Shown in pieces: positions 2,695 to 31,598 of a DNA stretch of 32,000 nt (positions are counted from its first letter, which is position 1; every line of letters starts with the position of its first letter). The DNA comes from Thermodesulfobacterium commune DSM 2178 (GTDB lineage Bacteria > Desulfobacterota > Thermodesulfobacteria > Thermodesulfobacteriales > Thermodesulfobacteriaceae). The stretch covers positions 660,001-692,000 of the forward strand of contig NZ_CP008796.1 of assembly GCF_000734015.1 (NCBI RefSeq). The letters are read 5' to 3'. Made by a program: the position numbers and the translations under genes. A model generated the notes under the pieces. The model was not told the DNA's origin. It made no database searches and saw only the letters and a program-made list of their open reading frames with translations.

Positions 2695-4338
2695 CTACCC
2701 TAAACTTCTAACAAAAAAACCACACGCTAAAAAAGCTAAAGAAACTATAAAAACTAAGGTTTCTAAGTATACTACCTGCCCAAGAGGTCTCTTTTTAACT
2801 ACTAAACCAAGAAAATAAGCTACTCCCCAAACCAAAAAGAATACTCCAAATTTGTAATGAAAAAGAGTTGTTAAGCTGGTTATCAATAGTCCTATTAAGA
2901 TAGTTAAGTTCAAAATTTTAAAGAAAATTTTAGGCTCATACGAAAAGGTAGAAAGTAAAAAATTTTTCGGCAAAAAGCCATCTGTCTGAAAGTAAACGAT
3001 CTCTAAATAAAGTTTTAGGTATAAAATCACAAGAACAGCTTGCAAAAAAATGACTCCAAAACTAAAAGTCCAAAAGGGATATAGATAAAGAGAAAGGGCT
3101 GACAAGAAAAGTATCTCCCAAAAAAAGGTTAATGCACTTCGATAGGTAAGAAAGTCAATCAACAAAAGTGCTATCACCAAACTTATTATCCTTGGTTTAT
3201 AAAGAAAAGCGGTTATTAAGGTAAAAAAACCCGTTAGCACAGCAAAAAACAAAAGTTTTTTTTGATGTTGAGAAAGAAACCTGTATTTTATCGGAAGGTA
3301 AAACTTAAAACTTTCTTTTAAAAGATTTTGGTTTAAAAGGTTTCTAAAAAGACTAAAACTTAAAAACCATAAAAGAAGATAAGAAAACTTAGAGTTTAAA
3401 GGATGGTTAATCCCTAACAACAGCCCAAGAAAAATTAAAAATAGGGTTAACGACCAGGTAGCCGAAGAAAAACACATAGCTTTTAAAAACTTATAAAAAA
3501 AAGAAGTTCTATTCTTTAAAACATCGACCACCTCGTTTATTAGCCAGTTTGGTGTTGAGGCTCCTGCAGTTATACCTACTGTTTTATGTTTCTTTAAATC
3601 TTCCCAAGAAAGTTCTTCAGGACTTTCGACAAGAAAAACATCTTTATTTTCTTTTTTAGCTACGTCTGCTAACCGGTTGGTGTTTGCACTAAACTTTCCA
3701 CCTATAACCACGATAGCTGAACATTCCTCACAAAGTTTTCTAACCTCGTTTTGTCTGACTGCTGTAGCATTACAGATGGTATTGATGATCTTTCCGTTAG
3801 GATAAAGAGACGTTATTCTTTTAGAAAGATGGTTAAACAGTTTTTCGTCTTGGGTAGTTTGAGAGAGGATGACATAATCTTTAAGAGGGGGAAGGGTTAC
3901 AACGTCTTCTTCTGAGGAAACCACATATCCTTTACCTTCACAATAACCAAGAATACCCTTAACTTCTGCATGATCTTTATCTCCTATGATCACTACCTCT
4001 TTTCCCTCTGATACAGCTTTTTTAGCCAAGGCCTGAACCTTAAGGACCCTTGGACAGGTACCATCTATAACCTTATGTTTTTCTGTCAATGCTTTATATT
4101 CCTTTGGAGGTACCCCATGGGCACGAATGATTACCACACCTGAGGGAAGGTTTTCGTTAGGGTCTTTTAACACCTGTACTCCAAAAATATCAAGAAGTTT
4201 TAAAGTCTGAGGATTATGGATTAGTGGTCCGTAAGTATAAATATATGATTTTTTCTCGTTTAAAGCCTTTAATACTAAATTTACCGCCCTTCTTACCCCC
4301 ATGCAAAACCCAGCTTTTTTAGCGATTTTTATCTTCAT
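2695..4338 (-). CDS. ispH: 4-hydroxy-3-methylbut-2-enyl diphosphate reductase (IspH) fused to a C-terminal polytopic membrane domain
   Basis: aa 1-276 are a complete IspH with three cluster Cys (GFCMGVRRAV, DGTCPRVLKV, NTICNATAVRQ) plus SQTTQ and SANTNRL. aa ~280-547 form about 9 hydrophobic segments with no recognisable catalytic motif. Single uninterrupted ORF. Confidence 0.85.
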   Translation of the reverse strand: MKIKIAKKAGFCMGVRRAVNLVLKALNEKKSYIYTYGPLIHNPQTLKLLDIFGVQVLKDPNENLPSGVVIIRAHGVPPKEYKALTEKHKVIDGTCPRVLKVQALAKKAVSEGKEVVIIGDKDHAEVKGILGYCEGKGYVVSSEEDVVTLPPLKDYVILSQTTQDEKLFNHLSKRITSLYPNGKIINTICNATAVRQNEVRKLCEECSAIVVIGGKFSANTNRLADVAKKENKDVFLVESPEELSWEDLKKHKTVGITAGASTPNWLINEVVDVLKNRTSFFYKFLKAMCFSSATWSLTLFLIFLGLLLGINHPLNSKFSYLLLWFLSFSLFRNLLNQNLLKESFKFYLPIKYRFLSQHQKKLLFFAVLTGFFTLITAFLYKPRIISLVIALLLIDFLTYRSALTFFWEILFLSALSLYLYPFWTFSFGVIFLQAVLVILYLKLYLEIVYFQTDGFLPKNFLLSTFSYEPKIFFKILNLTILIGLLITSLTTLFHYKFGVFFLVWGVAYFLGLVVKKRPLGQVVYLETLVFIVSLAFLACGFFVRSLG

Positions 4339-5084
4339 AAGATTTCTCTCCTTATCTCTGCCTTTAACCTGTCTATATCTCCTTTTTCAGCCATACTGTA
4401 GTATCCATTTTTACCTACGATAACATGATCAAGCACTTTAATCTGAAGAAGGTCTCCTGCCAAAACCAGTCTTTTAGTAAGCATTAAATCTTCTTTAGAA
4501 GGGGTAGGATCTCCAGAAGGATGGTTATGCACTAACACTATGGAAAGGGCCTTCTTCTCCAGTGCCTTTTTAAAAATTTCTCTTGGATATACCGCACTTT
4601 CATGTAGGGTTCCTTCAAAAAGGGTTTCTCCTCCTAAAAACTTAGACTTAGCATCAAGAAAAAGAACTTTTAAAACCTCTCGGTCCAAATTTTGCATTTC
4701 ATACTTGAGATATTCATATACCTCTTGTGGAGACCTTAGATATTCTGACTTTGTCGCCCTACTCTGAAGATACCTTCGAGCAACCTCATGAATAACCTTT
4801 AAAGGTAAAATAGCCCTTTCCTTAAGTCCCTTAAACTTTTTAAGTTCTTCTAAAGGAGCATCAAGTACCTGATCTAAAGTTTTATAATGTTCTAAAAGGG
4901 TTCTTGCAAGTTTTCTGGTATCTCTGTAAGGAAGGCTAAACATTAAAAGAAGCTCAAGTAAGTCTTCATCTGTAAAACTTTTTGGCCCTTCTTTAAGAAA
5001 CCGTTCTTTTACCCTAGCTCTGTGGCCTTTTGCCTTTTCATACGCCTCTATCAAAATTTTTTGAGAATATTTTTTTTCAGGCAT
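4335..5084 (-). CDS. radC: RadC-family JAMM/MPN protein
   Basis: HNHPSGDPTPSKED JAMM motif and helix-hairpin-helix-like N-terminus (DEDLLELLL). ATGA overlap with ispH. Confidence 0.85.
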   Translation of the reverse strand: MPEKKYSQKILIEAYEKAKGHRARVKERFLKEGPKSFTDEDLLELLLMFSLPYRDTRKLARTLLEHYKTLDQVLDAPLEELKKFKGLKERAILPLKVIHEVARRYLQSRATKSEYLRSPQEVYEYLKYEMQNLDREVLKVLFLDAKSKFLGGETLFEGTLHESAVYPREIFKKALEKKALSIVLVHNHPSGDPTPSKEDLMLTKRLVLAGDLLQIKVLDHVIVGKNGYYSMAEKGDIDRLKAEIRREIL

Positions 5085-5548
5085 GTTTAAAACACGATCG
5101 TTTTAAAAACTCATCTGAAATTGAGCCCTTCCGTGAACCTGAAAAATTCCATCTTTTATATGATAGGTCATACCCTTTCCCCTAATCAACATACCTTTTT
5201 GTTTTACTAAAACTTCTTTTTCCGTAAAAAGATAGTTCTTTTTAGGAAAAAATATCAACTCTTCGGTATATACTTCTCCATAGTTTTCAGTAACCAATTT
5301 TACATTGCCTTGAAAAACCATTTTATCCTCTTTGGGATAGTAATAACCTCTCTGAGAAGAGACGTTAATTCCTTTGGATGGACTGATTAAAGTTAAACCC
5401 TCTGCCCAAAAAGTACCTTCTTTATCACGTTTAAAGAAAGATGCTTTAAGCTTCCAAAGAAGTCCTTCTTTACTGTAAAAACTGTATTCCAAATCTTTGG
5501 CTACCATACGAAAATCTTTGGATAAAGAAGGAGAAACTAAAAACAAAA

Positions 5549-6893
<1,345 letters not shown>

Positions 6894-21625: not shown

Positions 21626-22498
21626 ATGCCTAATTTAATCATCATAACTGGCACCTCAGGTTCTGGGAAAAGCACAGCTTTAAAGGCTTTTGAGGATTTA
21701 GGCTACCTTGCTATAGACAACTTTCCTACCCGACTTTTAATTTCCTTTTTAAAGGAAGTTAAGGAAAGCCTGTCTACAGACAAGGTAGCCTTAGTAATGG
21801 ACCTAAGAGATAGATACTTTTTGCCTGAGTTTAAAACCGTACTTCCTCAGATACACAAGCTAGGTTATTTTTGGGAGCTCATCTTTCTTGATGCAAGAAC
21901 TGACGTTATCATTTCAAGGTTTAACCTCACAAGAAGATTGCATCCTCTTTTAAGAGAAAAAGAAGTTGGTTTAGAAGAGGTTATAGAGAGGGAAAAGGAA
22001 CTTTTAGCAGACATCAGAGAACTTGCTACTCTCTTTATAGACACCTCTAACTACAACGTCCATCAACTAAGAAATGAAATTTTTACAAGATATCAGACAA
22101 GAACTGACCTGAAAAATTTAGTCTTACATTTTATCTCTTTTGGATATAAATATGGAATACCTCCTGAAGCAGACTATGTCTTTGATGCAAGAATCCTTCC
22201 TAACCCTTATTTTAACCCAGAATTAAAACCTCTTAACGGAGAGAACCCTCTTATTAAACAATATTTACTAAACTACGATATAACCAAAACATTTTTAAAC
22301 TTTCTAACTGAGTTTTTAAATTGGTTAATACCTGTTTATGCCAAAAGCAACAAACGATATCTTACTTTAGCCATAGGATGTACTGGGGGTAGACATCGTT
22401 CAGTTGCTCTAATCGAATTTTTAGTAGAAAATTTAAAGAAATCTTTGTTTGAAGTAGAGTTTATAGTGTCTCATAGAGATATTAAAAAAGATGTTTAA
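21626..22498 (+). CDS. rapZ: RNase adapter protein RapZ (YhbJ family P-loop)
   Basis: ITGTSGSGKSTALKAFEDLGY Walker A and C-terminal GCTGGRHRSVA motif. Confidence 0.9.
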   Translation: MPNLIIITGTSGSGKSTALKAFEDLGYLAIDNFPTRLLISFLKEVKESLSTDKVALVMDLRDRYFLPEFKTVLPQIHKLGYFWELIFLDARTDVIISRFNLTRRLHPLLREKEVGLEEVIEREKELLADIRELATLFIDTSNYNVHQLRNEIFTRYQTRTDLKNLVLHFISFGYKYGIPPEADYVFDARILPNPYFNPELKPLNGENPLIKQYLLNYDITKTFLNFLTEFLNWLIPVYAKSNKRYLTLAIGCTGGRHRSVALIEFLVENLKKSLFEVEFIVSHRDIKKDV

Positions 22499-22931: not shown

Positions 22932-24887
22932 ATGATAGAAAAGTTCACTTCTAAAGCCTTATTAGCTAATTTAGCCTACACTTTTGTAGAAAACGTAGAG
23001 TACGACCCTAAGTATAATGTTTTCCCAGAAATTTATGCTAAGTTTCCAGCTCTTAGGCAACAAATAGAAACACTTTTAAAAGAGGCCTTCCATCCTTATA
23101 AAAATAATTTTCTTGTTTTAGAAGAACTTAGAAGTTACTTTTTAAAGAACCTTTCGATTTTACTTAAACATCCCTACAGAAACAGGGCTTACTGGTTAAT
23201 TTTTGACCTTTTATTTAAGTTTTTTGGAAAAGACCAAGAAACTAACATCAAAACCGCAGAGACTATTTTTTCTATACTTGATAAAACAGCTGACCTAATC
23301 GACCAAGAAACTTTTTACGAGCTAATCCCTGTTTTAAAAGAAATTTTAAAGGCCATAACCAACCTTCCAGAAGAATATTTTTTGAATTTTTTAGAAAATT
23401 ACTATTCTTTTAAACGTTTAGTTCAAAAGTTAAGCAAACTTTCTTTTTCTCGGGAACTTGAGTTGGTTTACATAGACCTTCTCAAAAAAACTTATATTTC
23501 GACCTATACTTTTTGGGGAAAATTAGCTAAAACCTGTGAAGCTAACCTTATTCAAAACACCTCAAGTATAAGGCTTAAAGAAGACTTTTTGACCTCAAAC
23601 TATTTTGAAAGTCTCATTAATTCTTTAATTGAAAAACCTGTGACTTTGTCTAATCTTTTATCTCTTCCCGATCATTTAGATTTACTTAAAAAATTAAAAG
23701 ATTTTATTTCTTCTATCAATCAACTGAACCATTACAATTTTTCTGACGAGCTAAAAATCAATTTTCTTTTTGATTTAATAAAGGCCCCTATTCTCAAACT
23801 TATCCATGAAGAATTGATCAAAGAAGTAAACCGTAACTTAATCTTAATGATTAACTCTAAACCTTACCAAAACTTAGACGAATTTATCAGAAAGTTTTTT
23901 GATATCCTAAAAGAAAAGCTCAACCTTTACCCACGTACTGCTCTTGAATGTATTAAAAACATAGGGATTTGTATTTTAAACAAAAAAGAGGTTTACCTTA
24001 TAGAGGTATTGATAAATGAAATCATAAAGTTTGGATTTCAACCTCCGCAGATCAAAGGTATTGGTTTAAATTGGAAGATTATCCAAAACCCACACCATCT
24101 CCTTAACATAAAAACTTGGCTTGAGATTTTTAAGGTCAATCCTGAATGGTGTAGCAGTCTTTTGGCTGCTATGATCTTAAACCTAAGACTATATGGAATT
24201 TCTATCAAAGATACAGACCTTTTCCAAAAGGAGATTACTCAGCTACTTAACGCTCCTATCAAACCAGTGTACAACCTTACCAAACAGTTTTGTAAACTAC
24301 TACCTGTTTATTACAACGAAATCGGAGCAGAAGGTCTTATAAGAGACCTCTCAACAGAATTAGATGAACTTTTTAACAGACAAGATTCTTTAATCCATTT
24401 TTTAAGAAAGTTTATACACATCGAAAACTCAAGCTTAGCAGTTGAATTTATAAAAGATATTCTTAAATACTGGTTTACCCTGGAAGATAGACATATTCTC
24501 AAATATTTACCTGAAGTACTTCATAACAAGTTAAAAAATGAAGAAATTGAAATTCATATCAAAATGCAAAGTTTGTTTCAGGCTGTTTTTCAAAAAGCAA
24601 ATTTAAAAAATTTTGAGGACTTTTTAAACTTAGAGCTTTCTTCTTTAAAAAAAATCCTTAACGACATAGATTTCGAAGAAATATATAAAAAAGAAACTCT
24701 ATCTTACGGTTTCTTTGTACCATTTAGAATGTCAAAAGTATTTTGGAGTTTTAAAAGACATAAACCTTTTGTTAATCCAATACGACGAAAAGGAATATCC
24801 ATTTATAGCAGAACTAAAGGACCTTCTTCAAAAAGAACCTCAGGACTTATATGTGATTTTAGAAAAGATCTTAGACTGGATGTCTGA
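22932..24887 (+). CDS. Large helical protein of unknown function; probably the N-terminal part of a frameshifted fusion with the next ORF
   Basis: 651-aa ORF, Leu/Lys/Glu/Phe-rich and helical-looking, with no motif I recognise. The last ~55 aa (RMSKVFWSFKRHKPFVNPIRRKG...) switch to Arg/Ser/Pro-rich out-of-frame-like composition, while frame 1 looks native from about 24670. Confidence 0.6.
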   Translation: MIEKFTSKALLANLAYTFVENVEYDPKYNVFPEIYAKFPALRQQIETLLKEAFHPYKNNFLVLEELRSYFLKNLSILLKHPYRNRAYWLIFDLLFKFFGKDQETNIKTAETIFSILDKTADLIDQETFYELIPVLKEILKAITNLPEEYFLNFLENYYSFKRLVQKLSKLSFSRELELVYIDLLKKTYISTYTFWGKLAKTCEANLIQNTSSIRLKEDFLTSNYFESLINSLIEKPVTLSNLLSLPDHLDLLKKLKDFISSINQLNHYNFSDELKINFLFDLIKAPILKLIHEELIKEVNRNLILMINSKPYQNLDEFIRKFFDILKEKLNLYPRTALECIKNIGICILNKKEVYLIEVLINEIIKFGFQPPQIKGIGLNWKIIQNPHHLLNIKTWLEIFKVNPEWCSSLLAAMILNLRLYGISIKDTDLFQKEITQLLNAPIKPVYNLTKQFCKLLPVYYNEIGAEGLIRDLSTELDELFNRQDSLIHFLRKFIHIENSSLAVEFIKDILKYWFTLEDRHILKYLPEVLHNKLKNEEIEIHIKMQSLFQAVFQKANLKNFEDFLNLELSSLKKILNDIDFEEIYKKETLSYGFFVPFRMSKVFWSFKRHKPFVNPIRRKGISIYSRTKGPSSKRTSGLICDFRKDLRLDV

Positions 24888-27099
24888 GCTTAAAGAGATT
24901 ATTTTGTCTAAGCAAACCTATCCTCCTATAGAAGAGATTCTTCAAAAAAGACACGTAGCTGCTGACATTCCTTCTATGTATGGGAGGTATAAAGAGAAAA
25001 AATTTGATGCCTTAGGACTCACCTTTCGTCTGGAATATCTTGCCAATCTTTTATTTGAAAAGCTTATAGAAAAGTTTGACCTTCAGTTTATCACAAGAGC
25101 CTCTTTTTTTAAAATCCTGAAAATATTAAAGCTTTTTAAAAAGGCTTTAGAGATCGATGGAATTTTTTCTCAAAAATTTGAATCTTCGTTAAATCTTCTC
25201 GAATATTCTTTGAAAAGTTATCCCCTAACCTACAGTCAATATTTAGATATTTTTCGTGGATTATTAGACGGTGTTCAACACATAGTAAAAGTTTACTATG
25301 TAAACCCTTTCCTCAAGGTCTTTCCTTTGGTATTTCAAACTCTAAATGAAGACGAAATTTTAGAAAAGTACAAGAAATGTTTGTGTGGTTTAGAAAAAGA
25401 GCAACGTTATTTTTGTATAAGTGAGGTGGTAATAAAAGACCTTATAGGAGAGGCTTTTAGTCTAACCCATCTAGACCGTTTTCTTAAAAAAATCTACGAT
25501 ATCCTTTCTTCTTATTTAGAAAAGATAGCTAAAGAGGACCTGAATTTATTAATGAGCTACGACCCAAGAAGAATTCTCTCTTCTCTACATAAACCTAATA
25601 ATTTAGTAACAGATTTGATTTACCTCGGTAACAAAGGATACATTCTTACGATATTAGCTCAAGAACAAAAGATAAAAAACAAAATCCCACCAGGTTTTAT
25701 TTTAACTACAGAAGTGTTTAGATGTTACCCTCTTATAAAAAAATATCCTGAATTATGGCTTGATTATACTGAAAAAATTGAACAAAATATCAAGATGTTA
25801 GAAGATATTTCTCAGAAAGTTTTTGGAGGTAAAGAAAATCCTCTGGTAGTAAGTATAAGAAGTGGAGCGGCCCTCTCTATGCCTGGGATGATGAATTCTA
25901 TCCTGAACGTAGGTTTAAATCTTGAGACAGTAGAGGGGTTGGCAAGGGCTTCTGGGAATACTTGGTTTGCTTGGGATACCTATCGCAGGTTTATTCAAAG
26001 CTGGGCTATGGCCTTTGGTGTCCCTCGAGATTTTTTTAACCATCTTATGCGAGAGCATAAACGAAAATACAAAGTAAAGAAAAAAAGAGAGTTTAGCGGT
26101 GAACAAATGCAAGAACTTGCGCTGCTCTACAGGAAAAGTATTCAAGAATTGGGAATTCCAGTCATCGATGATCCTTGGGAACAGCTTTTTAAAGGGATTG
26201 AATTAATTTTAACCTCTTGGTTTAATGAAAAAGCTAAGTCTTATAGAGAAATAATGCAGCTTTCTGATGAGTGGGGAACGGCTGTAATCATCCAACAGAT
26301 GGTTTTTGGAAACATAGGAGATCACACAGGTACAGGGGTAACACTTACTACCTCCCCTGTAGGCAAGTTTCCAAGAATTATTCTCTGGGGAGATTATACC
26401 TCCTATAATCAAGGAGAAGACATCGTATCAGGTTTGGTCAACGCCTACCCAATTTCTATAGAACAAAAGAAAATAGAAGAACGAGAAGGACCTTGTTTAC
26501 AAGAAGCCTTTCCAGATGTATATAAAGCTTTACTTGATTTAGCCTATTATCTAGTCTATGAAAAAGGATGGGGACATCAAGAAATCGAGTTTACTTTTGA
26601 AGGAAATGACCCAGATTCTCTTTATATTTTACAAGTAAGAGATATAATTCTTAGAGAAGAAAGGGATATTCCTTTCTTCTCTAAAGAATTGCTAAAAAAT
26701 TTAGAGTATATCGGGAAAGGAATAGGAGTTACAGGAGGTTTAATCTCAGGAAGGATAGTGTTTGGTTGGGAAGATATCATAACCATGGATACAGGAGATC
26801 CTTTGGTGTTAGTAAGATATGATACCGTACCGGACAACATTAAAGAAATTCATAAAGTAGATGGAATCCTTACGGCAAGAGGAGGGCAAACCTCTCATGC
26901 TGCTATCGTAGCCTCAAGATTAGGTAAAATCTGTGTAGTTGGTTGTGAGAATTTAAGCATAGATGAAATAAAGAAAGAAGCAAAAATTAATGGCCACAAA
27001 CTTAGATTAGGAGAATGGATCACGTTAAACGGGATAACAGGTCAAGTTTTTAAAGGAAAGATTGACCTTTTAACCAAAGCCTCTAAATATAATCTATAA
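24715..27099 (+). CDS. PPDK-like ATP-grasp + phosphohistidine swivel protein lacking the PEP/pyruvate TIM-barrel domain
   Basis: From about 25600: GNKGYIL, IPPGFILTTE, NPLVVSIRSGAALSMPGMMNSILNVGLN, WGTAVIIQQMVFGN, QGEDIVSG and GILTARGGQTSHAAIVASRLGKICVVGC (His codon 26896-26898) are collinear with pyruvate phosphate dikinase. The ORF stops where the PEP/pyruvate domain would begin. TTG start from the track; alternatives are the ATG at 24880 or read-through from 22932. Confidence 0.8.
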   Translation: MYHLECQKYFGVLKDINLLLIQYDEKEYPFIAELKDLLQKEPQDLYVILEKILDWMSELKEIILSKQTYPPIEEILQKRHVAADIPSMYGRYKEKKFDALGLTFRLEYLANLLFEKLIEKFDLQFITRASFFKILKILKLFKKALEIDGIFSQKFESSLNLLEYSLKSYPLTYSQYLDIFRGLLDGVQHIVKVYYVNPFLKVFPLVFQTLNEDEILEKYKKCLCGLEKEQRYFCISEVVIKDLIGEAFSLTHLDRFLKKIYDILSSYLEKIAKEDLNLLMSYDPRRILSSLHKPNNLVTDLIYLGNKGYILTILAQEQKIKNKIPPGFILTTEVFRCYPLIKKYPELWLDYTEKIEQNIKMLEDISQKVFGGKENPLVVSIRSGAALSMPGMMNSILNVGLNLETVEGLARASGNTWFAWDTYRRFIQSWAMAFGVPRDFFNHLMREHKRKYKVKKKREFSGEQMQELALLYRKSIQELGIPVIDDPWEQLFKGIELILTSWFNEKAKSYREIMQLSDEWGTAVIIQQMVFGNIGDHTGTGVTLTTSPVGKFPRIILWGDYTSYNQGEDIVSGLVNAYPISIEQKKIEEREGPCLQEAFPDVYKALLDLAYYLVYEKGWGHQEIEFTFEGNDPDSLYILQVRDIILREERDIPFFSKELLKNLEYIGKGIGVTGGLISGRIVFGWEDIITMDTGDPLVLVRYDTVPDNIKEIHKVDGILTARGGQTSHAAIVASRLGKICVVGCENLSIDEIKKEAKINGHKLRLGEWITLNGITGQVFKGKIDLLTKASKYNL

Positions 27100-27111
27100 A
27101 AGGAGGGTACC

Positions 27112-28335
27112 ATGAAATTAGGAATAAATGGATTAGGAAGAATTGGAAAACTTACTTTGTGGCATCACATAGCAAGAAAATATTTTGACGAAATTGTAGT
27201 CAACGTAGGTAGGGAAGTGGGAACTTCTTTCGCTGATATAGCAAGCTACATAGAGAAAGACAGCACCTATGGATGGCTCCCTGTTTATCTTTATGGGCAC
27301 AAAGGTAAAAGAGTGATTGAAAATTTGGACGAAAAAGAAGGAACGATGTATATAGATGGTATTAAGGTAAAAGTCTTGAGAACTAGTAGGAATCCGAAAA
27401 ACATAAACTGGAGAGAAGAAGGGGTAAAACTGGTGGTTGATTGTACTGGAAAGTTTAGAGACCCAAATACAGACCCGGAGGATTCTAAAGGTTCAATCAG
27501 GGGACATTTTTTAGGAGGAGCCGAAAAAGTAATTCTTTCAGCACCTTTTAAAATTAAAGATAAAGAAAAAGGTATTCCAGAAGACGCAATCACTATAGTT
27601 TATGGAATAAACGAAGAGGTTTATCAACCTAACAAACATAACCTTATTTCAGCTGCTTCCTGCACCACTACTTGTTTAGCTTATATGATTAAACCTCTTT
27701 TGGACTATTTTGGGGTAGATAGAATACTTTCTGCCTCGATGGTGACAGTTCATGCTGCTACAAGTTCTCAGGTAGTACTTGACCGTTTACCTAAGGAAGG
27801 GGCAAAAGATCTAAGAAGGATGAGAAGTATCTTTAATAATATCATCCTTACCACTACAGGGGCTGCAGAAGCTCTTAGTTTAGTCATACCTGAAATGAAA
27901 AAAGTAGGTTTTATGGCAGAAAGTGTAAGAGTTCCGTTAAACACCGGAAGCTTGATCATCCTGACGGTTAACATCCAAGATGAAAGCATAGAAAATCACA
28001 TAGATAGAGAACTTATCAACAACATTTATAAAGAAGCAGCCAATACTAAATACAAAGACTTTTTGATTTTCACCACAGAACAAAACGTCTCTTCTGACAT
28101 CATAGGATATCCTAAAGCAGCCGCAATAATTGAAGGAAGTGAAACCCATACCAGAACTGCAACTGCCAAGGTAGACATCTGTAAAGCCCTTCCGGAAGGA
28201 AATAGCATGACATGCACTCATGTAGAGATACCCATTACCCAAGTGGTGATTTACGGTTGGTATGATAACGAGCTCGGTTCTTACACCAACATGTTAGGAG
28301 AACTCACAGTTTACATAGCTGAAAAAATGATTTAA
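27112..28335 (+). CDS. Atypical long glyceraldehyde-3-phosphate dehydrogenase-family protein
   Basis: KLGINGLGRIGKL Rossmann start, catalytic SAASCTTTCLA (Cys codon 27661-27663), TVHAATSSQ (His), DLRRMRS and TTGAAEAL. At 407 aa it is roughly 70 aa longer than canonical Gap because of insertions. RBS aaaggaggg lies 12 nt after the upstream stop. Confidence 0.8.
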   Translation: MKLGINGLGRIGKLTLWHHIARKYFDEIVVNVGREVGTSFADIASYIEKDSTYGWLPVYLYGHKGKRVIENLDEKEGTMYIDGIKVKVLRTSRNPKNINWREEGVKLVVDCTGKFRDPNTDPEDSKGSIRGHFLGGAEKVILSAPFKIKDKEKGIPEDAITIVYGINEEVYQPNKHNLISAASCTTTCLAYMIKPLLDYFGVDRILSASMVTVHAATSSQVVLDRLPKEGAKDLRRMRSIFNNIILTTTGAAEALSLVIPEMKKVGFMAESVRVPLNTGSLIILTVNIQDESIENHIDRELINNIYKEAANTKYKDFLIFTTEQNVSSDIIGYPKAAAIIEGSETHTRTATAKVDICKALPEGNSMTCTHVEIPITQVVIYGWYDNELGSYTNMLGELTVYIAEKMI

Positions 28336-28780: not shown

Positions 28781-29447
28781 GATAATAACCATAGACGGAC
28801 CTGCAGCCTCTGGGAAAACCACCATAGCTAAGCTTTTGGCTAAATCCCTTGGATATTGTTTGTTAGAATCAGGGGCTTTTTATAGGTTGGTTACCTACCT
28901 TCTTTTAAAACACAATCTTTACGAAAAATTTATCCAAAAAAACTTAAACCTTATAGAAACATTAAGCAAGCTTTTTTCTTCGGTGAAGATAAACCTTACG
29001 GCTGAGGCAACACAAATTTTTTACGAAGGAAGGGAAATAAAATCTGAACTCAGAGAAATCCAAGTAGAGGAAAGAGTTTCTGTAGTAGCTTCTATACCAG
29101 AAGTAAGAGAATTTATCAACGATTTTTTAAGAAAGTTGGTGGACAACCGTTTAGTAGTAGCAGAAGGGCGTGATATGGGAAGTGTGGTTTTTAAAGATGC
29201 TGAGGTTAAAGTTTTTCTTACAGCTGATGAAAGGATTAGGGCTGAAAGAAGATTTCAAGAGAAAACCGAAAAAGAAAGTCTACCTTATACCCAAGTGATG
29301 GATAGTTTAAAAAAAAGAGACCAGCTTGACAGCACAAGAAAGGTAGCGCCTTTAACTGTTCCTGAAGGAGCTTTAATTTTAGACACCTCTCACTTAACAC
29401 CTGAGGAGGTATTAACCAAAATTTTAAATTACTTAGAAAAAATATGA
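28767..29447 (+). CDS. cmk: Cytidylate kinase
   Basis: ITIDGPAASGKTTIAKLLA P-loop, GRDMGSVVF and RAERR. Confidence 0.9.
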   Translation: MKKPKIITIDGPAASGKTTIAKLLAKSLGYCLLESGAFYRLVTYLLLKHNLYEKFIQKNLNLIETLSKLFSSVKINLTAEATQIFYEGREIKSELREIQVEERVSVVASIPEVREFINDFLRKLVDNRLVVAEGRDMGSVVFKDAEVKVFLTADERIRAERRFQEKTEKESLPYTQVMDSLKKRDQLDSTRKVAPLTVPEGALILDTSHLTPEEVLTKILNYLEKI

Positions 29448-29752
29448 AAAAAAATTTTTTGAGTATAGAGGAGTTTATAAAAAAAGAAAAGGAAAAAGCT
29501 CGTAAACTTAGACAAACAAGATGGTGGAGAAGACAGTTAGAAAGAGGTATATGTTATTATTGCGGAAGAAGAGTAGGCGCTAAAAATCTTACGATGGACC
29601 ATAAAATTCCTCTTTCAAGAGGGGGAACTTCGGACAGAGTCAATATAGTTCCTTGTTGTAAGGATTGTAACAATAAAAAAAAGTATCTTTTACCTTGGGA
29701 ATGGGACGAGTACATAAAAAGTCTCAAATCTAAAAAGGTAGACGGAGAATGA
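29444..29752 (+). CDS. Small HNH endonuclease-domain protein
   Basis: CYYCGRRV...LTMDHKIPLSRGG...VPCCKDCNNKK (a complete HNH zinc finger) after a basic N-terminal helix. ATGA overlap with cmk; stop lies 1 nt before the glmS ATG. Confidence 0.8.
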   Translation: MKKNFLSIEEFIKKEKEKARKLRQTRWWRRQLERGICYYCGRRVGAKNLTMDHKIPLSRGGTSDRVNIVPCCKDCNNKKKYLLPWEWDEYIKSLKSKKVDGE

Positions 29753-29753
29753 T

Positions 29754-31598
29754 ATGTGCGGAATAATAGGGTATATAGGAAATAGACCGATCATTCCTGT
29801 TTTGTTAGAAGGTTTAAGAAGGCTTGAATACAGAGGTTATGATTCAGCAGGGATAGTGTTTTTAGAAGACGAAGAAATAAAAATAGTTAAGACTAAAGGA
29901 AAAATCTTAAACTTAGAAGAAAAACTCTTTAATGATTTCCCTAAGAAAGCTAAAGCCCCTGGGTTAGGACATACCAGATGGGCTACCCATGGAGAACCTT
30001 CTGACGAAAACGCTCATCCTCATTTTGACTGTCATAAATCTTTAGCCTTGGTGCACAACGGCATCATAGAAAATTATTATGAGTTAAAGACTAAACTTAT
30101 AGCTAAAGGTCATAAGTTTTACTCAGCAACTGATACTGAAGTGATCGTGCACTTAATAGAAGATTTCTTAAACCAAGGAATACCACTTAAAGAGGCGTTT
30201 TTTAAGGCTCTAAAAGAACTAAAAGGTGCCTATGCTGTGGCCTTGATTCATAAAGAAAATCCTGATTTTATTTTGATTGGAAGAAACCAAAGTCCTGTAG
30301 TAATAGGTTTAGGAAAACAGGAAAATTTTGTAGCCTCTGACATCCCTGCTCTTTTACCTTTTACTAAAGAAGTTTTGTTTTTAAACGATGGGGAAGTAGC
30401 TATACTTAGGAAAGATCAAGTAGAAATCTATGATTTATCAGGCAATCCTGTTGCAAGAGCCCCATATCATGTGACCTGGGATATAGCCTCAGCTGAAAAG
30501 GGTGGTTTTGACCACTTTATGCTAAAAGAAATCTATGAGCAACCTGAAGCCATAAAAAACACGATGTTAGGAAGGATTGATTTGGATAAAAACCAGATTG
30601 ATTTTTCTCAGGAAGGATTAGACCAAAAATTTTTAGAAGGAATACAAAGGTTTTATATCGTTGCTTGTGGTACCTCTTATCATGCTGGATTGGTAGCAAA
30701 ATATCTCATAGAAAGGGAGTTAGGCCTTCCTGTAGAGGTAGATATTGCCTCTGAATTTAGATATAGAAACCCTATTTTAGACGAAAAAACCCTTTTTATA
30801 GGAATTTCCCAATCAGGAGAAACAGCTGATACCCTTGCCAGCTTACGTTTAGCTAAAGAGAAAGGTGCTAAAACCCTTTCTATCTGTAATGTGGTAGGAA
30901 GTACCATAGCCAGAGAAACTGAGGTTGTATTATATACTAAAGCTGGGCCTGAAATAAGTGTGGCTTCTACTAAGGCTTTTTCTACTCAGGTTTTAACCTT
31001 TGTCCTCTTTACCTTTTATCTAAAACAGCTATTATTTGGAGAAAATGAAAAAAAACAAAAAATCGAGGCTTTAATAAAACTACCCTCCCAATTAAAAATT
31101 TTTATCGAAAAGGTCCATTCTAAAGTTAAAACTTTGGCTCAAAAGTGGTATCAAGCACAAAATGCACTTTATTTAGGAAGAAACATCCTTTATCCTATAG
31201 CCTTAGAAGGTGCCTTAAAACTTAAAGAAATTTCTTACATCCATGCAGAGGGTTATGCAGCAGGGGAGATGAAACATGGACCTATAGCCCTGATAGAAGA
31301 AAAGGTACCTACTGTAATCCTTGCAGCCAAAGAAACAGGCATTGTTTACGAAAAAACTTTGTCTAACGCTGAAGAGGTAAGGTCACGTAGAGGGCCTATT
31401 ATCTCATTGGTAACCGAAGGGGCCAAAGAATTCCAAAAAATTTCTGACGAATACATAGAAGTTCCCTTGACTTTTTATGAATTTTTACCTATTTTTTATG
31501 TAGTTCCTCTTCAACTTTTAGCCTATGAAATAGCTACTTTAAGAGGTTGTGACGTAGATAAACCAAGAAATTTAGCCAAAAGCGTAACAGTTGAGTAA
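29754..31598 (+). CDS. glmS: Glutamine--fructose-6-phosphate aminotransferase
   Basis: MCGIIGYIG Ntn-Cys start, two SIS domains (GISQSGETADT) and C-terminal KSVTVE. Confidence 0.95.
   Translation: MCGIIGYIGNRPIIPVLLEGLRRLEYRGYDSAGIVFLEDEEIKIVKTKGKILNLEEKLFNDFPKKAKAPGLGHTRWATHGEPSDENAHPHFDCHKSLALVHNGIIENYYELKTKLIAKGHKFYSATDTEVIVHLIEDFLNQGIPLKEAFFKALKELKGAYAVALIHKENPDFILIGRNQSPVVIGLGKQENFVASDIPALLPFTKEVLFLNDGEVAILRKDQVEIYDLSGNPVARAPYHVTWDIASAEKGGFDHFMLKEIYEQPEAIKNTMLGRIDLDKNQIDFSQEGLDQKFLEGIQRFYIVACGTSYHAGLVAKYLIERELGLPVEVDIASEFRYRNPILDEKTLFIGISQSGETADTLASLRLAKEKGAKTLSICNVVGSTIARETEVVLYTKAGPEISVASTKAFSTQVLTFVLFTFYLKQLLFGENEKKQKIEALIKLPSQLKIFIEKVHSKVKTLAQKWYQAQNALYLGRNILYPIALEGALKLKEISYIHAEGYAAGEMKHGPIALIEEKVPTVILAAKETGIVYEKTLSNAEEVRSRRGPIISLVTEGAKEFQKISDEYIEVPLTFYEFLPIFYVVPLQLLAYEIATLRGCDVDKPRNLAKSVTVE

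Follow-up and report, generated by a model that had tools for sequence, protein, structure and literature searches.

The relatives of pyruvate phosphate dikinase (PPDK) whose phosphoenolpyruvate (PEP) domain has been lost or replaced mostly phosphorylate small molecules (witness rifampin phosphotransferase and the phenol and hydroxyphenylethanone kinases), and dikinases of the phenylphosphate synthase and HpeHI type show that the modules for ATP and for the acceptor are open to rearrangement and splitting. The same remnant can also serve regulation: VadK (Rv1127c) of Mycobacterium tuberculosis, a truncated PPDK, is a regulatory histidine kinase that autophosphorylates His422 and binds enzymes of the methylcitrate cycle that are encoded nearby (PMC13400623). 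The subject of this account is another PPDK-like protein, 1,388 residues long and here called "BIG", whose gene lies directly upstream of a gene for glyceraldehyde-3-phosphate dehydrogenase (GAPDH; gap) in the genome of Thermodesulfobacterium commune DSM 2178. Both lie in the 32,000-nt stretch of contig NZ_CP008796.1 that was analysed (positions 660,001 to 692,000 of the forward strand; "the window", from whose first letter all its coordinates are counted). BIG belongs to a large, uncharacterised and misannotated family, derived from PPDK and equipped with a new acceptor or regulatory domain, and it is very probable that the protein is a functional, ATP-dependent phosphohistidine enzyme of a new family.

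The domains of BIG and its interrupted reading frame

What BIG has kept of PPDK lies at its C-terminal end. Pfam recognizes a PPDK_N domain (E = 1.6e-24) and a PEP-utilizers domain (3.7e-19) and nothing else: the PEP-utilizers_C barrel was not found by that search. The PDB match is PPDK itself (1kbl, E = 2.5e-78), with BIG residues ~905-1243 aligned to PPDK 17-337 and ~1264-1386 to PPDK 378-511; BIG has nine more residues after that and stops at about PPDK position ~511-518, where the swivel domain is complete and the linker to the triose-phosphate isomerase (TIM) barrel has yet to begin. An earlier note on this DNA, made from its letters and a list of reading frames, had described just such a protein: some 500 C-terminal residues of PPDK type, the catalytic Thr-Ser-His (T-S-H) included, a chain that stops where the barrel should begin, and ~900 preceding helical residues without a recognized motif. 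Database searches and structural models bear this description out.

The ATP-grasp nucleotide-binding domain (residues ~895-1243; 25615-26661, on the forward strand like all BIG and gap features of the window) is delimited by PPDK_N, by the PPDK alignment (to PPDK 25-337 in the case of 1kbl) and by a Foldseek match to 1kbl, and the swivel phosphohistidine domain (residues ~1255-1388; 26695-27096) by PEP-utilizers, by the same alignment and by a match to 2fm4. The catalytic T1320-S1321-H1322 (26890-26898; translation checked) sits within GGQTSHAAIVA and is invariant in the family. The equivalents of PPDK K22, R92, E323, Q335 and R337 are conserved in the BIG alignments, and the nucleotide-site motifs LGNKG (which contains the K22 equivalent), VSxRSG, SMPGMM, YRRF, QGEDIVSG, EFT and LQxRD are conserved or invariant in the family. 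An AlphaFold2 (AF2) model of residues 189-1388 (predicted local distance difference test, pLDDT, 87.6; predicted template modelling score, pTM, 0.78) superposes on 1kbl at 2.9 Å over 539 columns, its His domain docked on the ATP-grasp domain as in that structure. Matches to NCBIfam models are partial and stay far below the respective cut-offs: 378.9 bits against 843.45 for PPDK (TIGR01828), 275.5 against 456 for the 534-position model NF004531 (PRK05878, which we take to be the model of short, Rv1127c-type PPDKs), 76.9 against 739.75 for PEP synthase (TIGR01418) and 39.6 against 999 for rifampin phosphotransferase (NF041857). By alignment and model, BIG derives from PPDK and retains its ATP-grasp and swivel His domains, with every nucleotide-site and T-S-H residue intact.

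The first ~890 residues are another matter. AF2 folds them (pLDDT 88.5, pTM 0.83) into an all-α, solenoid-like domain with one β-hairpin at 666-687, for which no sequence relative was found in Pfam, NCBIfam, PADLOC or the PDB and for which Foldseek returns only generic HEAT/ARM solenoids, at template modelling (TM) scores of 0.15-0.18: a confident new helical architecture without a solved relative. Conservation was read from 92 sequences, the distant lineages among which are just 31-35% identical to the query. Residues 1 to ~280 are variable; the core, ~370-850, holds many invariant polar residues, including D427, D429, R471, S474, D478, R492, K493, H496, K602, R673, H674, Y686, E688, K690, E701, Q769, D772, E831 and D848, and about 18 of its invariant residues are Asp, Glu, Arg, Lys or His. 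In the model these polar residues lie mostly in loops and in the hairpin, not on the repeat helices, a pattern typical of a ligand or catalytic site. Two stretches, each with its translation checked, stand out: the invariant IKDTDLFQ loop that carries D427 and D429 (24204-24227), and the hairpin motif KRHxAxDIPSMYGxYxExKFDALGLTFRLE (24946-25035; modelled strands 666-674 and 679-687), in which R673, H674, Y686, E688, K690 and E701 are invariant and which, from its conservation, is a candidate acceptor or docking site.

In the window, BIG is not written in a single frame. The interval 22932-28335 contains three long forward-strand open reading frames (ORFs): 22932-24887 (651 residues), 24715-27099 (794 residues, in the +1 frame relative to the first) and 27112-28335 (407 residues, the gap gene). 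The earlier note had joined the first two into one giant protein of ~1,440 residues, a figure that does not stand: removing any one base around 24685-24704 restores a frame of 1,388 residues. An uninterrupted protein of that length (P0001) is 99% identical to the two pieces (96.6% between the first piece and its residues 1-588, 99.6% between the second and its residues 586-1388), and where the window has a run of six adenines (A6, 24687-24692), T. hveragerdense (L003), T. thermophilum (L004) and an assembly 99.5% identical to the window (L163) have five (A5; TATAAAAAGAAAC). Because an intact homologue exists, because a one-base deletion restores the frame and because the relatives have A5, the two ORFs are read as pieces of one gene, whose first frame (22932-24692) would encode residues 1 to ~587, that is, the variable N-terminal helices and the first half of the conserved helical core, and whose second, +1 frame (24693-27099) would supply residues ~588-1388 and the stop codon. 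A programmed frameshift was considered and rejected, since the relatives, with A5, read straight through.

Two origins of the split come into question: an error of the consensus at a homopolymer, or damage to the gene that is confined to this strain and very recent. Other T. commune assemblies and sister species have the intact 1,388-residue gene (WP_038060380.1 is one intact orthologue), and the NCBI annotation of this genome has only a C-terminal piece of 776 residues. Aligned with L163 over 14.4 kb, the window shows only one gap and 70 nucleotide differences, 60 of them within BIG; 53 of those 60 fall in two 500-nt bins holding two short divergent patches (23530-23680 and 24500-24760, 84% and 91% identical, the remainder between and after them being 100% identical). 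The patches cover variable surface regions (residues 210-241 and 529-600), and the second includes the frameshift. Since their substitutions are mixed transitions and transversions and are not adenine-specific, the patches look like recombination import rather than retroelement mutagenesis, and a diversity-generating retroelement was rejected as their source. Is the BIG gene of this strain then a real, recently inactivated pseudogene, with no BIG function here? The frameshift does stand in a deposited complete genome, in which no more than the fragment is called, and it does fall inside one of two patches unique to this strain; but a single base in a homopolymer is the classic consensus error, no further stop or indel occurs within 4.2 kb, identity to an intact allele is complete outside the patches, and the other T. 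commune assemblies are intact. We regard inactivation as rather unlikely.

A profile of the N-terminal domain alone recovers 751 clusters at 50% identity. Every one of the 65 listed matches longer than 1,300 residues (1,335-1,540) continues past the N-terminal match for about 450-520 residues; six of the 65 were submitted to Pfam, and all six have PPDK_N and PEP-utilizers at the C-terminus. No PEP-utilizers_C was found in the family members examined, and among the best 150 of the 751 clusters the N-terminal domain has no alternative architecture, a hemerythrin fusion apart. To judge from these alignments, it is obligatorily fused to the ATP-grasp and His domains. The hemerythrin domain (~145 residues) is added at the N-terminus in one subfamily (P0155), and the locus of this type that was examined (L164, 1166-5788) has a bacterioferritin-like gene upstream and no gap nearby.

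When one genome was scanned for each species, a confirmed BIG locus appeared in at least 588 of them. The hosts are Thermodesulfobacteria, Desulfobulbia (among them Desulfobulbus, Desulfurivibrio and Candidatus Electrothrix) and other Desulfobacterota, Nitrospirota (Thermodesulfovibrionales, Dissulfurispiraceae) and Magnetococcales. By way of life they are reducers of sulfate, disproportionators of sulfur, cable bacteria and magnetotactic cocci. The public names of these proteins are "PEP/pyruvate-binding domain-containing protein", "pyruvate, phosphate dikinase" and "phosphoenolpyruvate synthase". Full-text literature searches turned up no description of the family, and a Dissulfuribacter proteomics paper could not be linked to it. 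The labels are not innocuous: hundreds of genomes name BIG a PPDK or a PEP synthase despite the missing pyruvate/PEP domain, and that can mislead reconstructions of gluconeogenesis.

BIG and its gap neighbours

The BIG stop codon (27097-27099) and the gap ATG (27112) are separated by a 12-nt spacer in which the Shine-Dalgarno sequence of gap, AAGGAGGG (27101-27108), is read directly. Is this arrangement peculiar to the window? ORFs were clustered from 82 BIG loci, of which 60 are readable on both sides and hence informative, and in 49 of the 60 there is a gap gene no more than 1.5 kb from BIG and in the same orientation. It takes different forms: the canonical GAPDH of 334 residues (GapS) upstream only (23 loci), gap on both sides (16 loci), or the long form of 407-425 residues that is found in the window (GapL) downstream only (10 loci). 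The pairing spans at least three phyla. Common to the Nitrospirota and Magnetococcales loci is only BIG-GapL, the flanking genes being unrelated; the fullest order, that of Thermodesulfobacteriota, is lptB-rpoN-hpf-(ptsN-like)-rapZ-(EIIA-Man)-GNAT-gapS-BIG-GapL-pgk-tpi-secG, of which gapS-BIG-GapL-pgk-tpi-secG is the commonly met part, and some loci read gapS-BIG-pgk-tpi. In 24 loci of Desulfobulbia a glycogen synthase gene directly precedes gapS-BIG. The gene orders identify BIG as an insertion into an ordinary triose-phosphate gap(-pgk-tpi) operon, linked, by the counts just given, to gap as such and not to one type of Gap.

GapL of the window (27112-28335, 407 residues; 100% identical to T. 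commune AIH03932.1) is a long-form type I GAPDH by Pfam (Gp_dh_N 64 bits, Gp_dh_C 96 bits) and by alignment with GAPDHs in the PDB. Its catalytic Cys184 (27661-27663) and His214 (27751-27753) are intact, and it retains SCTT, TVHA, TTTGAA and the equivalents of Arg195 and Arg231: all catalytic and phosphate-site residues. Its score on TIGR01534 is 344 bits against a cut-off of 367.2, a shortfall attributed to four insertions amounting to ~75 residues in total; NCBI names its orthologues type I GAPDH. In GapL and its homologues Asp32 of the NAD motif is replaced by a hydrophobic residue followed by an invariant G-R (N-x-G-R), whereas the GapS proteins that flank BIG retain N-D at this site; the replacement suggests that GapL uses NADP(H) or both cofactors.

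The earlier note was right about the length of this protein, its ribosome-binding site and its catalytic Cys and His, and the adjacency on which its case hung has proved to be conserved. It had also taken the protein for an atypical GAPDH and the pair for a two-gene module, and here it fares less well. A metagenome scan supplied 61 informative GapL loci at >=60% identity: BIG is directly upstream of GapL in 30 and absent from 31, most of the latter being plain GapL-pgk-tpi with tpi usually present; many BIG loci also carry GapL-pgk-tpi. With the canonical GapS of a close relative as query, Caldimicrobium, Thermosulfurimonas and Thermodesulfatator were matched, and no canonical GapS of cultured Thermodesulfobacterium appeared among the 120 best matches, down to ~50% identity; all cultured Thermodesulfobacterium species turned up in the GapL search. 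Since the catalytic residues are kept, since gap-pgk-tpi operons without BIG are common and since no second Gap is among the matches, GapL looks, on sequence grounds, like an ordinary operonic Gap and is probably the only type-I Gap of T. commune. What stands of the module is an uncharacterised dikinase-like gene beside gap. What does not stand is its dedication: GapL occurs as often without BIG, BIG also occurs with canonical Gap alone (the 23 loci already counted), and a dedicated GapL-BIG pair was accordingly rejected.

Two observations concern other genes of these strings. In one Thermodesulfobacterium-like genome (L005) the gapS upstream of BIG (4990-5994) no longer has its catalytic Cys and His (SNASSICVC, VVQSYT), nor the TGAA phosphate loop, and looks like a copy in decay or a pseudo-enzyme; the lineage to which the window belongs seems to have no gapS at all. 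Genes for a PtsN-like EIIA and for EIIA-Man flank rapZ in the gapS-BIG string of five loci (L011, L023, L026, L029 and L042), and the sequence examined around gapS-BIG in those Thermodesulfobacteriota showed neither an Enzyme I gene nor one for HPr. BIG as an ATP-driven stand-in for Enzyme I of the phosphotransferase system was considered and set aside: the linkage to ptsN-like and EIIA-Man genes is confined to certain lineages, and the window, the Nitrospirota and the Magnetococcales do not have it.

Within the window the pair is surrounded by unrelated genes, as the earlier note had also recorded. On one side are clpB, hpf, rapZ and a GNAT gene; on the other, gap is followed by nusB, cmk, an HNH gene and glmS, and the gap-pgk-tpi order is not found. 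The genes rapZ (21626-22498) and glmS (29754-31598) share the co-directional string hpf-rapZ-GNAT-BIG-gap-nusB-cmk-HNH-glmS; in enterobacteria RapZ acts on glmS by way of small RNAs. The HNH endonuclease gene (29444-29752, 102 residues) keeps its position between cmk and glmS in related Thermodesulfobacterium loci. Elsewhere in the window, a reverse-strand ORF of 546 residues (2695-4338) matches IspH/LytB over its first ~273 residues only, and its C-terminal half has no match at E<=1e-5.

Possible roles of BIG at the GAPDH step

What might such a protein do in the company of gap? Our tentative preference, held at somewhat less than even confidence, is for an ATP-driven histidine phosphotransferase at the node of GAPDH and phosphoglycerate kinase (PGK), its acceptor bound by the N-terminal core. 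Mg-ATP would (pyro)phosphorylate His1322 at the ATP-grasp site, with release of AMP; the γ-phosphate would probably go to inorganic phosphate (Pi), giving pyrophosphate (PPi), because this domain of BIG resembles that of PPDK more than that of PEP synthase; the C-terminal His domain would swing across to the conserved N-terminal core, and the phosphate would pass from His1322 to an acceptor held at a site there. The acceptor is placed at the GAPDH/PGK node because several phyla have BIG inside their gap(-pgk-tpi) operon. That it is a small molecule has, in our estimate, a little short of an even chance; this is favoured by the density of invariant Asp, Glu, Arg, Lys and His in the loops and hairpin, and by the fact that most relatives in which the PEP domain has been replaced act on metabolites.

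Naming the acceptor is a bolder step. If one compound had to be named, we would choose 3-phosphoglycerate (3-PG) as the most economical, although as a specific identification we consider it unlikely. Were its carboxylate the acceptor, the product would be 1,3-bisphosphoglycerate (1,3-BPG) for the adjoining GAPDH, and the reaction an AMP-forming, strongly driven counterpart of that of PGK. The corresponding 3-phosphoglycerate dikinase, ATP + Pi (or water) + 3-PG -> AMP + PPi (or Pi) + 1,3-BPG with direct hand-over to GAPDH, is likewise improbable. It would be a new, strongly driven gluconeogenic bypass of PGK, comparable with PEP synthase as opposed to pyruvate kinase, and in reverse it would regenerate ATP from AMP and PPi. 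The apparent confinement of BIG to taxa that use ATP sulfurylase and adenosine 5'-phosphosulfate reductase, a pathway that turns over AMP and PPi, is suggestive. The more general speculation of the earlier note, that the BIG-GAPDH pair makes or uses an acyl phosphate, describes a possible chemistry.

Several considerations weigh against a metabolite-directed phosphotransferase at this node. The N-terminal fold resembles HEAT/ARM solenoids and nothing else, and a solenoid of this kind usually binds proteins, not metabolites; the subfamily with the hemerythrin sensor lacks a gap neighbour, and so do 11 of the 60 informative loci; and pgk adjoins BIG in many loci and lies elsewhere in T. dismutans, so that a PGK bypass is not needed for completeness of the pathway. 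The solenoid and the sensor fusion speak instead for a regulatory histidine kinase or scaffold in the manner of VadK, which would bind the GAPDH encoded next to it and tune flux or direction at the GAPDH step, acting by binding or by phosphotransfer to protein, with its state set by ligand or sensor input. There is a precedent for a PPDK cut down to its ATP-grasp and His domains that binds enzymes encoded nearby (PMC13400623). BIG, moreover, pairs with either type of Gap and on either side, and it often stands between an Asp32-containing GapS and an Asp32-lacking GapL, which would suit a switch between catabolic and anabolic Gap; its 275 bits on NF004531, presumably a model for proteins of the Rv1127c type, point the same way. 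Two facts restrain us from going further in that direction. The ~18 invariant charged or polar residues of the N-terminal core, kept across phyla at 31-35% identity, look more like a catalytic or ligand site than like a binding surface; and the GapL insertions occur just as much in loci without BIG, so that they were not made for docking it. The regulatory role is nearly as probable as the phosphotransferase. Taken broadly, a metabolite acceptor and a protein-directed or regulatory function seem to us roughly equally probable, with a slight lean to a metabolite at the GAPDH/PGK node.

Two further proposals start from what BIG is called and from what adjoins it. The public names and the gluconeogenic operon would suit a PEP synthase or PPDK of another make, with pyruvate or PEP bound by an N-terminal domain that is not homologous to the usual one, but PEP-utilizers_C is missing, the score on the PPDK model is 379 bits against an 843-bit cut-off, and it is gap that is conserved next to BIG, rather than eno, pyk or por. 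T. dismutans, furthermore, has a separate PEP synthase, TDIS_0764, and its Gap genes are TDIS_2022 and TDIS_2024 (PMC4911364); its BIG would be the gene between the latter two, TDIS_2023. That BIG is the only PEP synthase is rejected for that organism, and, pgk adjoining BIG in many genomes, BIG is neither the sole PGK nor the sole PEP synthase; even in the broader form we hold the idea to be very unlikely. The glycogen synthase gene of the 24 Desulfobulbia loci suggests in turn a glucan (glycogen) dikinase akin to the glucan, water dikinase of plants. Since that linkage is restricted to one class, since neither a carbohydrate-binding module nor an (α/α)6 glycan-binding fold is among the Foldseek matches, and since the domain order is unlike that of glucan, water dikinase, this, too, is very unlikely.

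Either of the two more probable answers would be of some consequence. Should BIG be an enzyme, then gap-pgk-tpi, which is better known than any other operon of central carbon metabolism, harbours a conserved reaction that has gone unrecognised. Should it be a regulator, it would be the second and by far the more widespread case, after VadK, of a PPDK remnant put to work as a metabolic control kinase.

BIG and GapL beside their known relatives

With PPDK (EC 2.7.9.1; Clostridium symbiosum, 1KBL) BIG shares the ATP-grasp and swivel His domains, at 31-33% identity and with a superposition at 2.9 Å, and T-S-H and all nucleotide-site residues are conserved. Unlike PPDK, BIG has no PEP/pyruvate TIM barrel and has an extra N-terminal helical domain of ~890 residues; its His domain is C-terminal and hangs on one linker, while that of PPDK is central and hangs on two. 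PEP synthase (PpsA), phenylphosphate synthase and HpeHI have the same His-swivel chemistry with AMP as product, but their acceptor domains are homologues of the PEP-utilizers_C barrel or of other known folds; the N-terminal domain of BIG has no such homology. Rifampin phosphotransferase (5HV1/5FBS), a Foldseek match to the BIG model at E~1e-4, offers an analogy of plan: it too consists of an ATP-grasp domain, a substrate-binding domain and a C-terminal swivel His domain, and it passes phosphate from ATP by way of phosphohistidine to an acceptor other than pyruvate. In the rifampin enzyme, however, the substrate domain is the middle one, placed after the ATP-grasp domain and before the His domain, and bears no relation to the one in BIG; the similarity in sequence is marginal (39.6 bits).

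GapL, for its part, has both Pfam domains and the catalytic residues of the type I GAPDHs (GapA/GapB) and occupies the gap position in gap-pgk-tpi operons; it differs from them by its ~75 inserted residues and by the replacement of Asp32. VadK, finally, is like BIG in keeping of PPDK only the ATP-grasp and His domains and in being encoded near the metabolic enzymes with which it is linked. It has ~490 residues and no added domain, whereas BIG has 890 more at its N-terminus, and the taxa and the pathway context are different. Autophosphorylation of VadK has been demonstrated; BIG is known from its sequence, in which the residues required for autophosphorylation are present.

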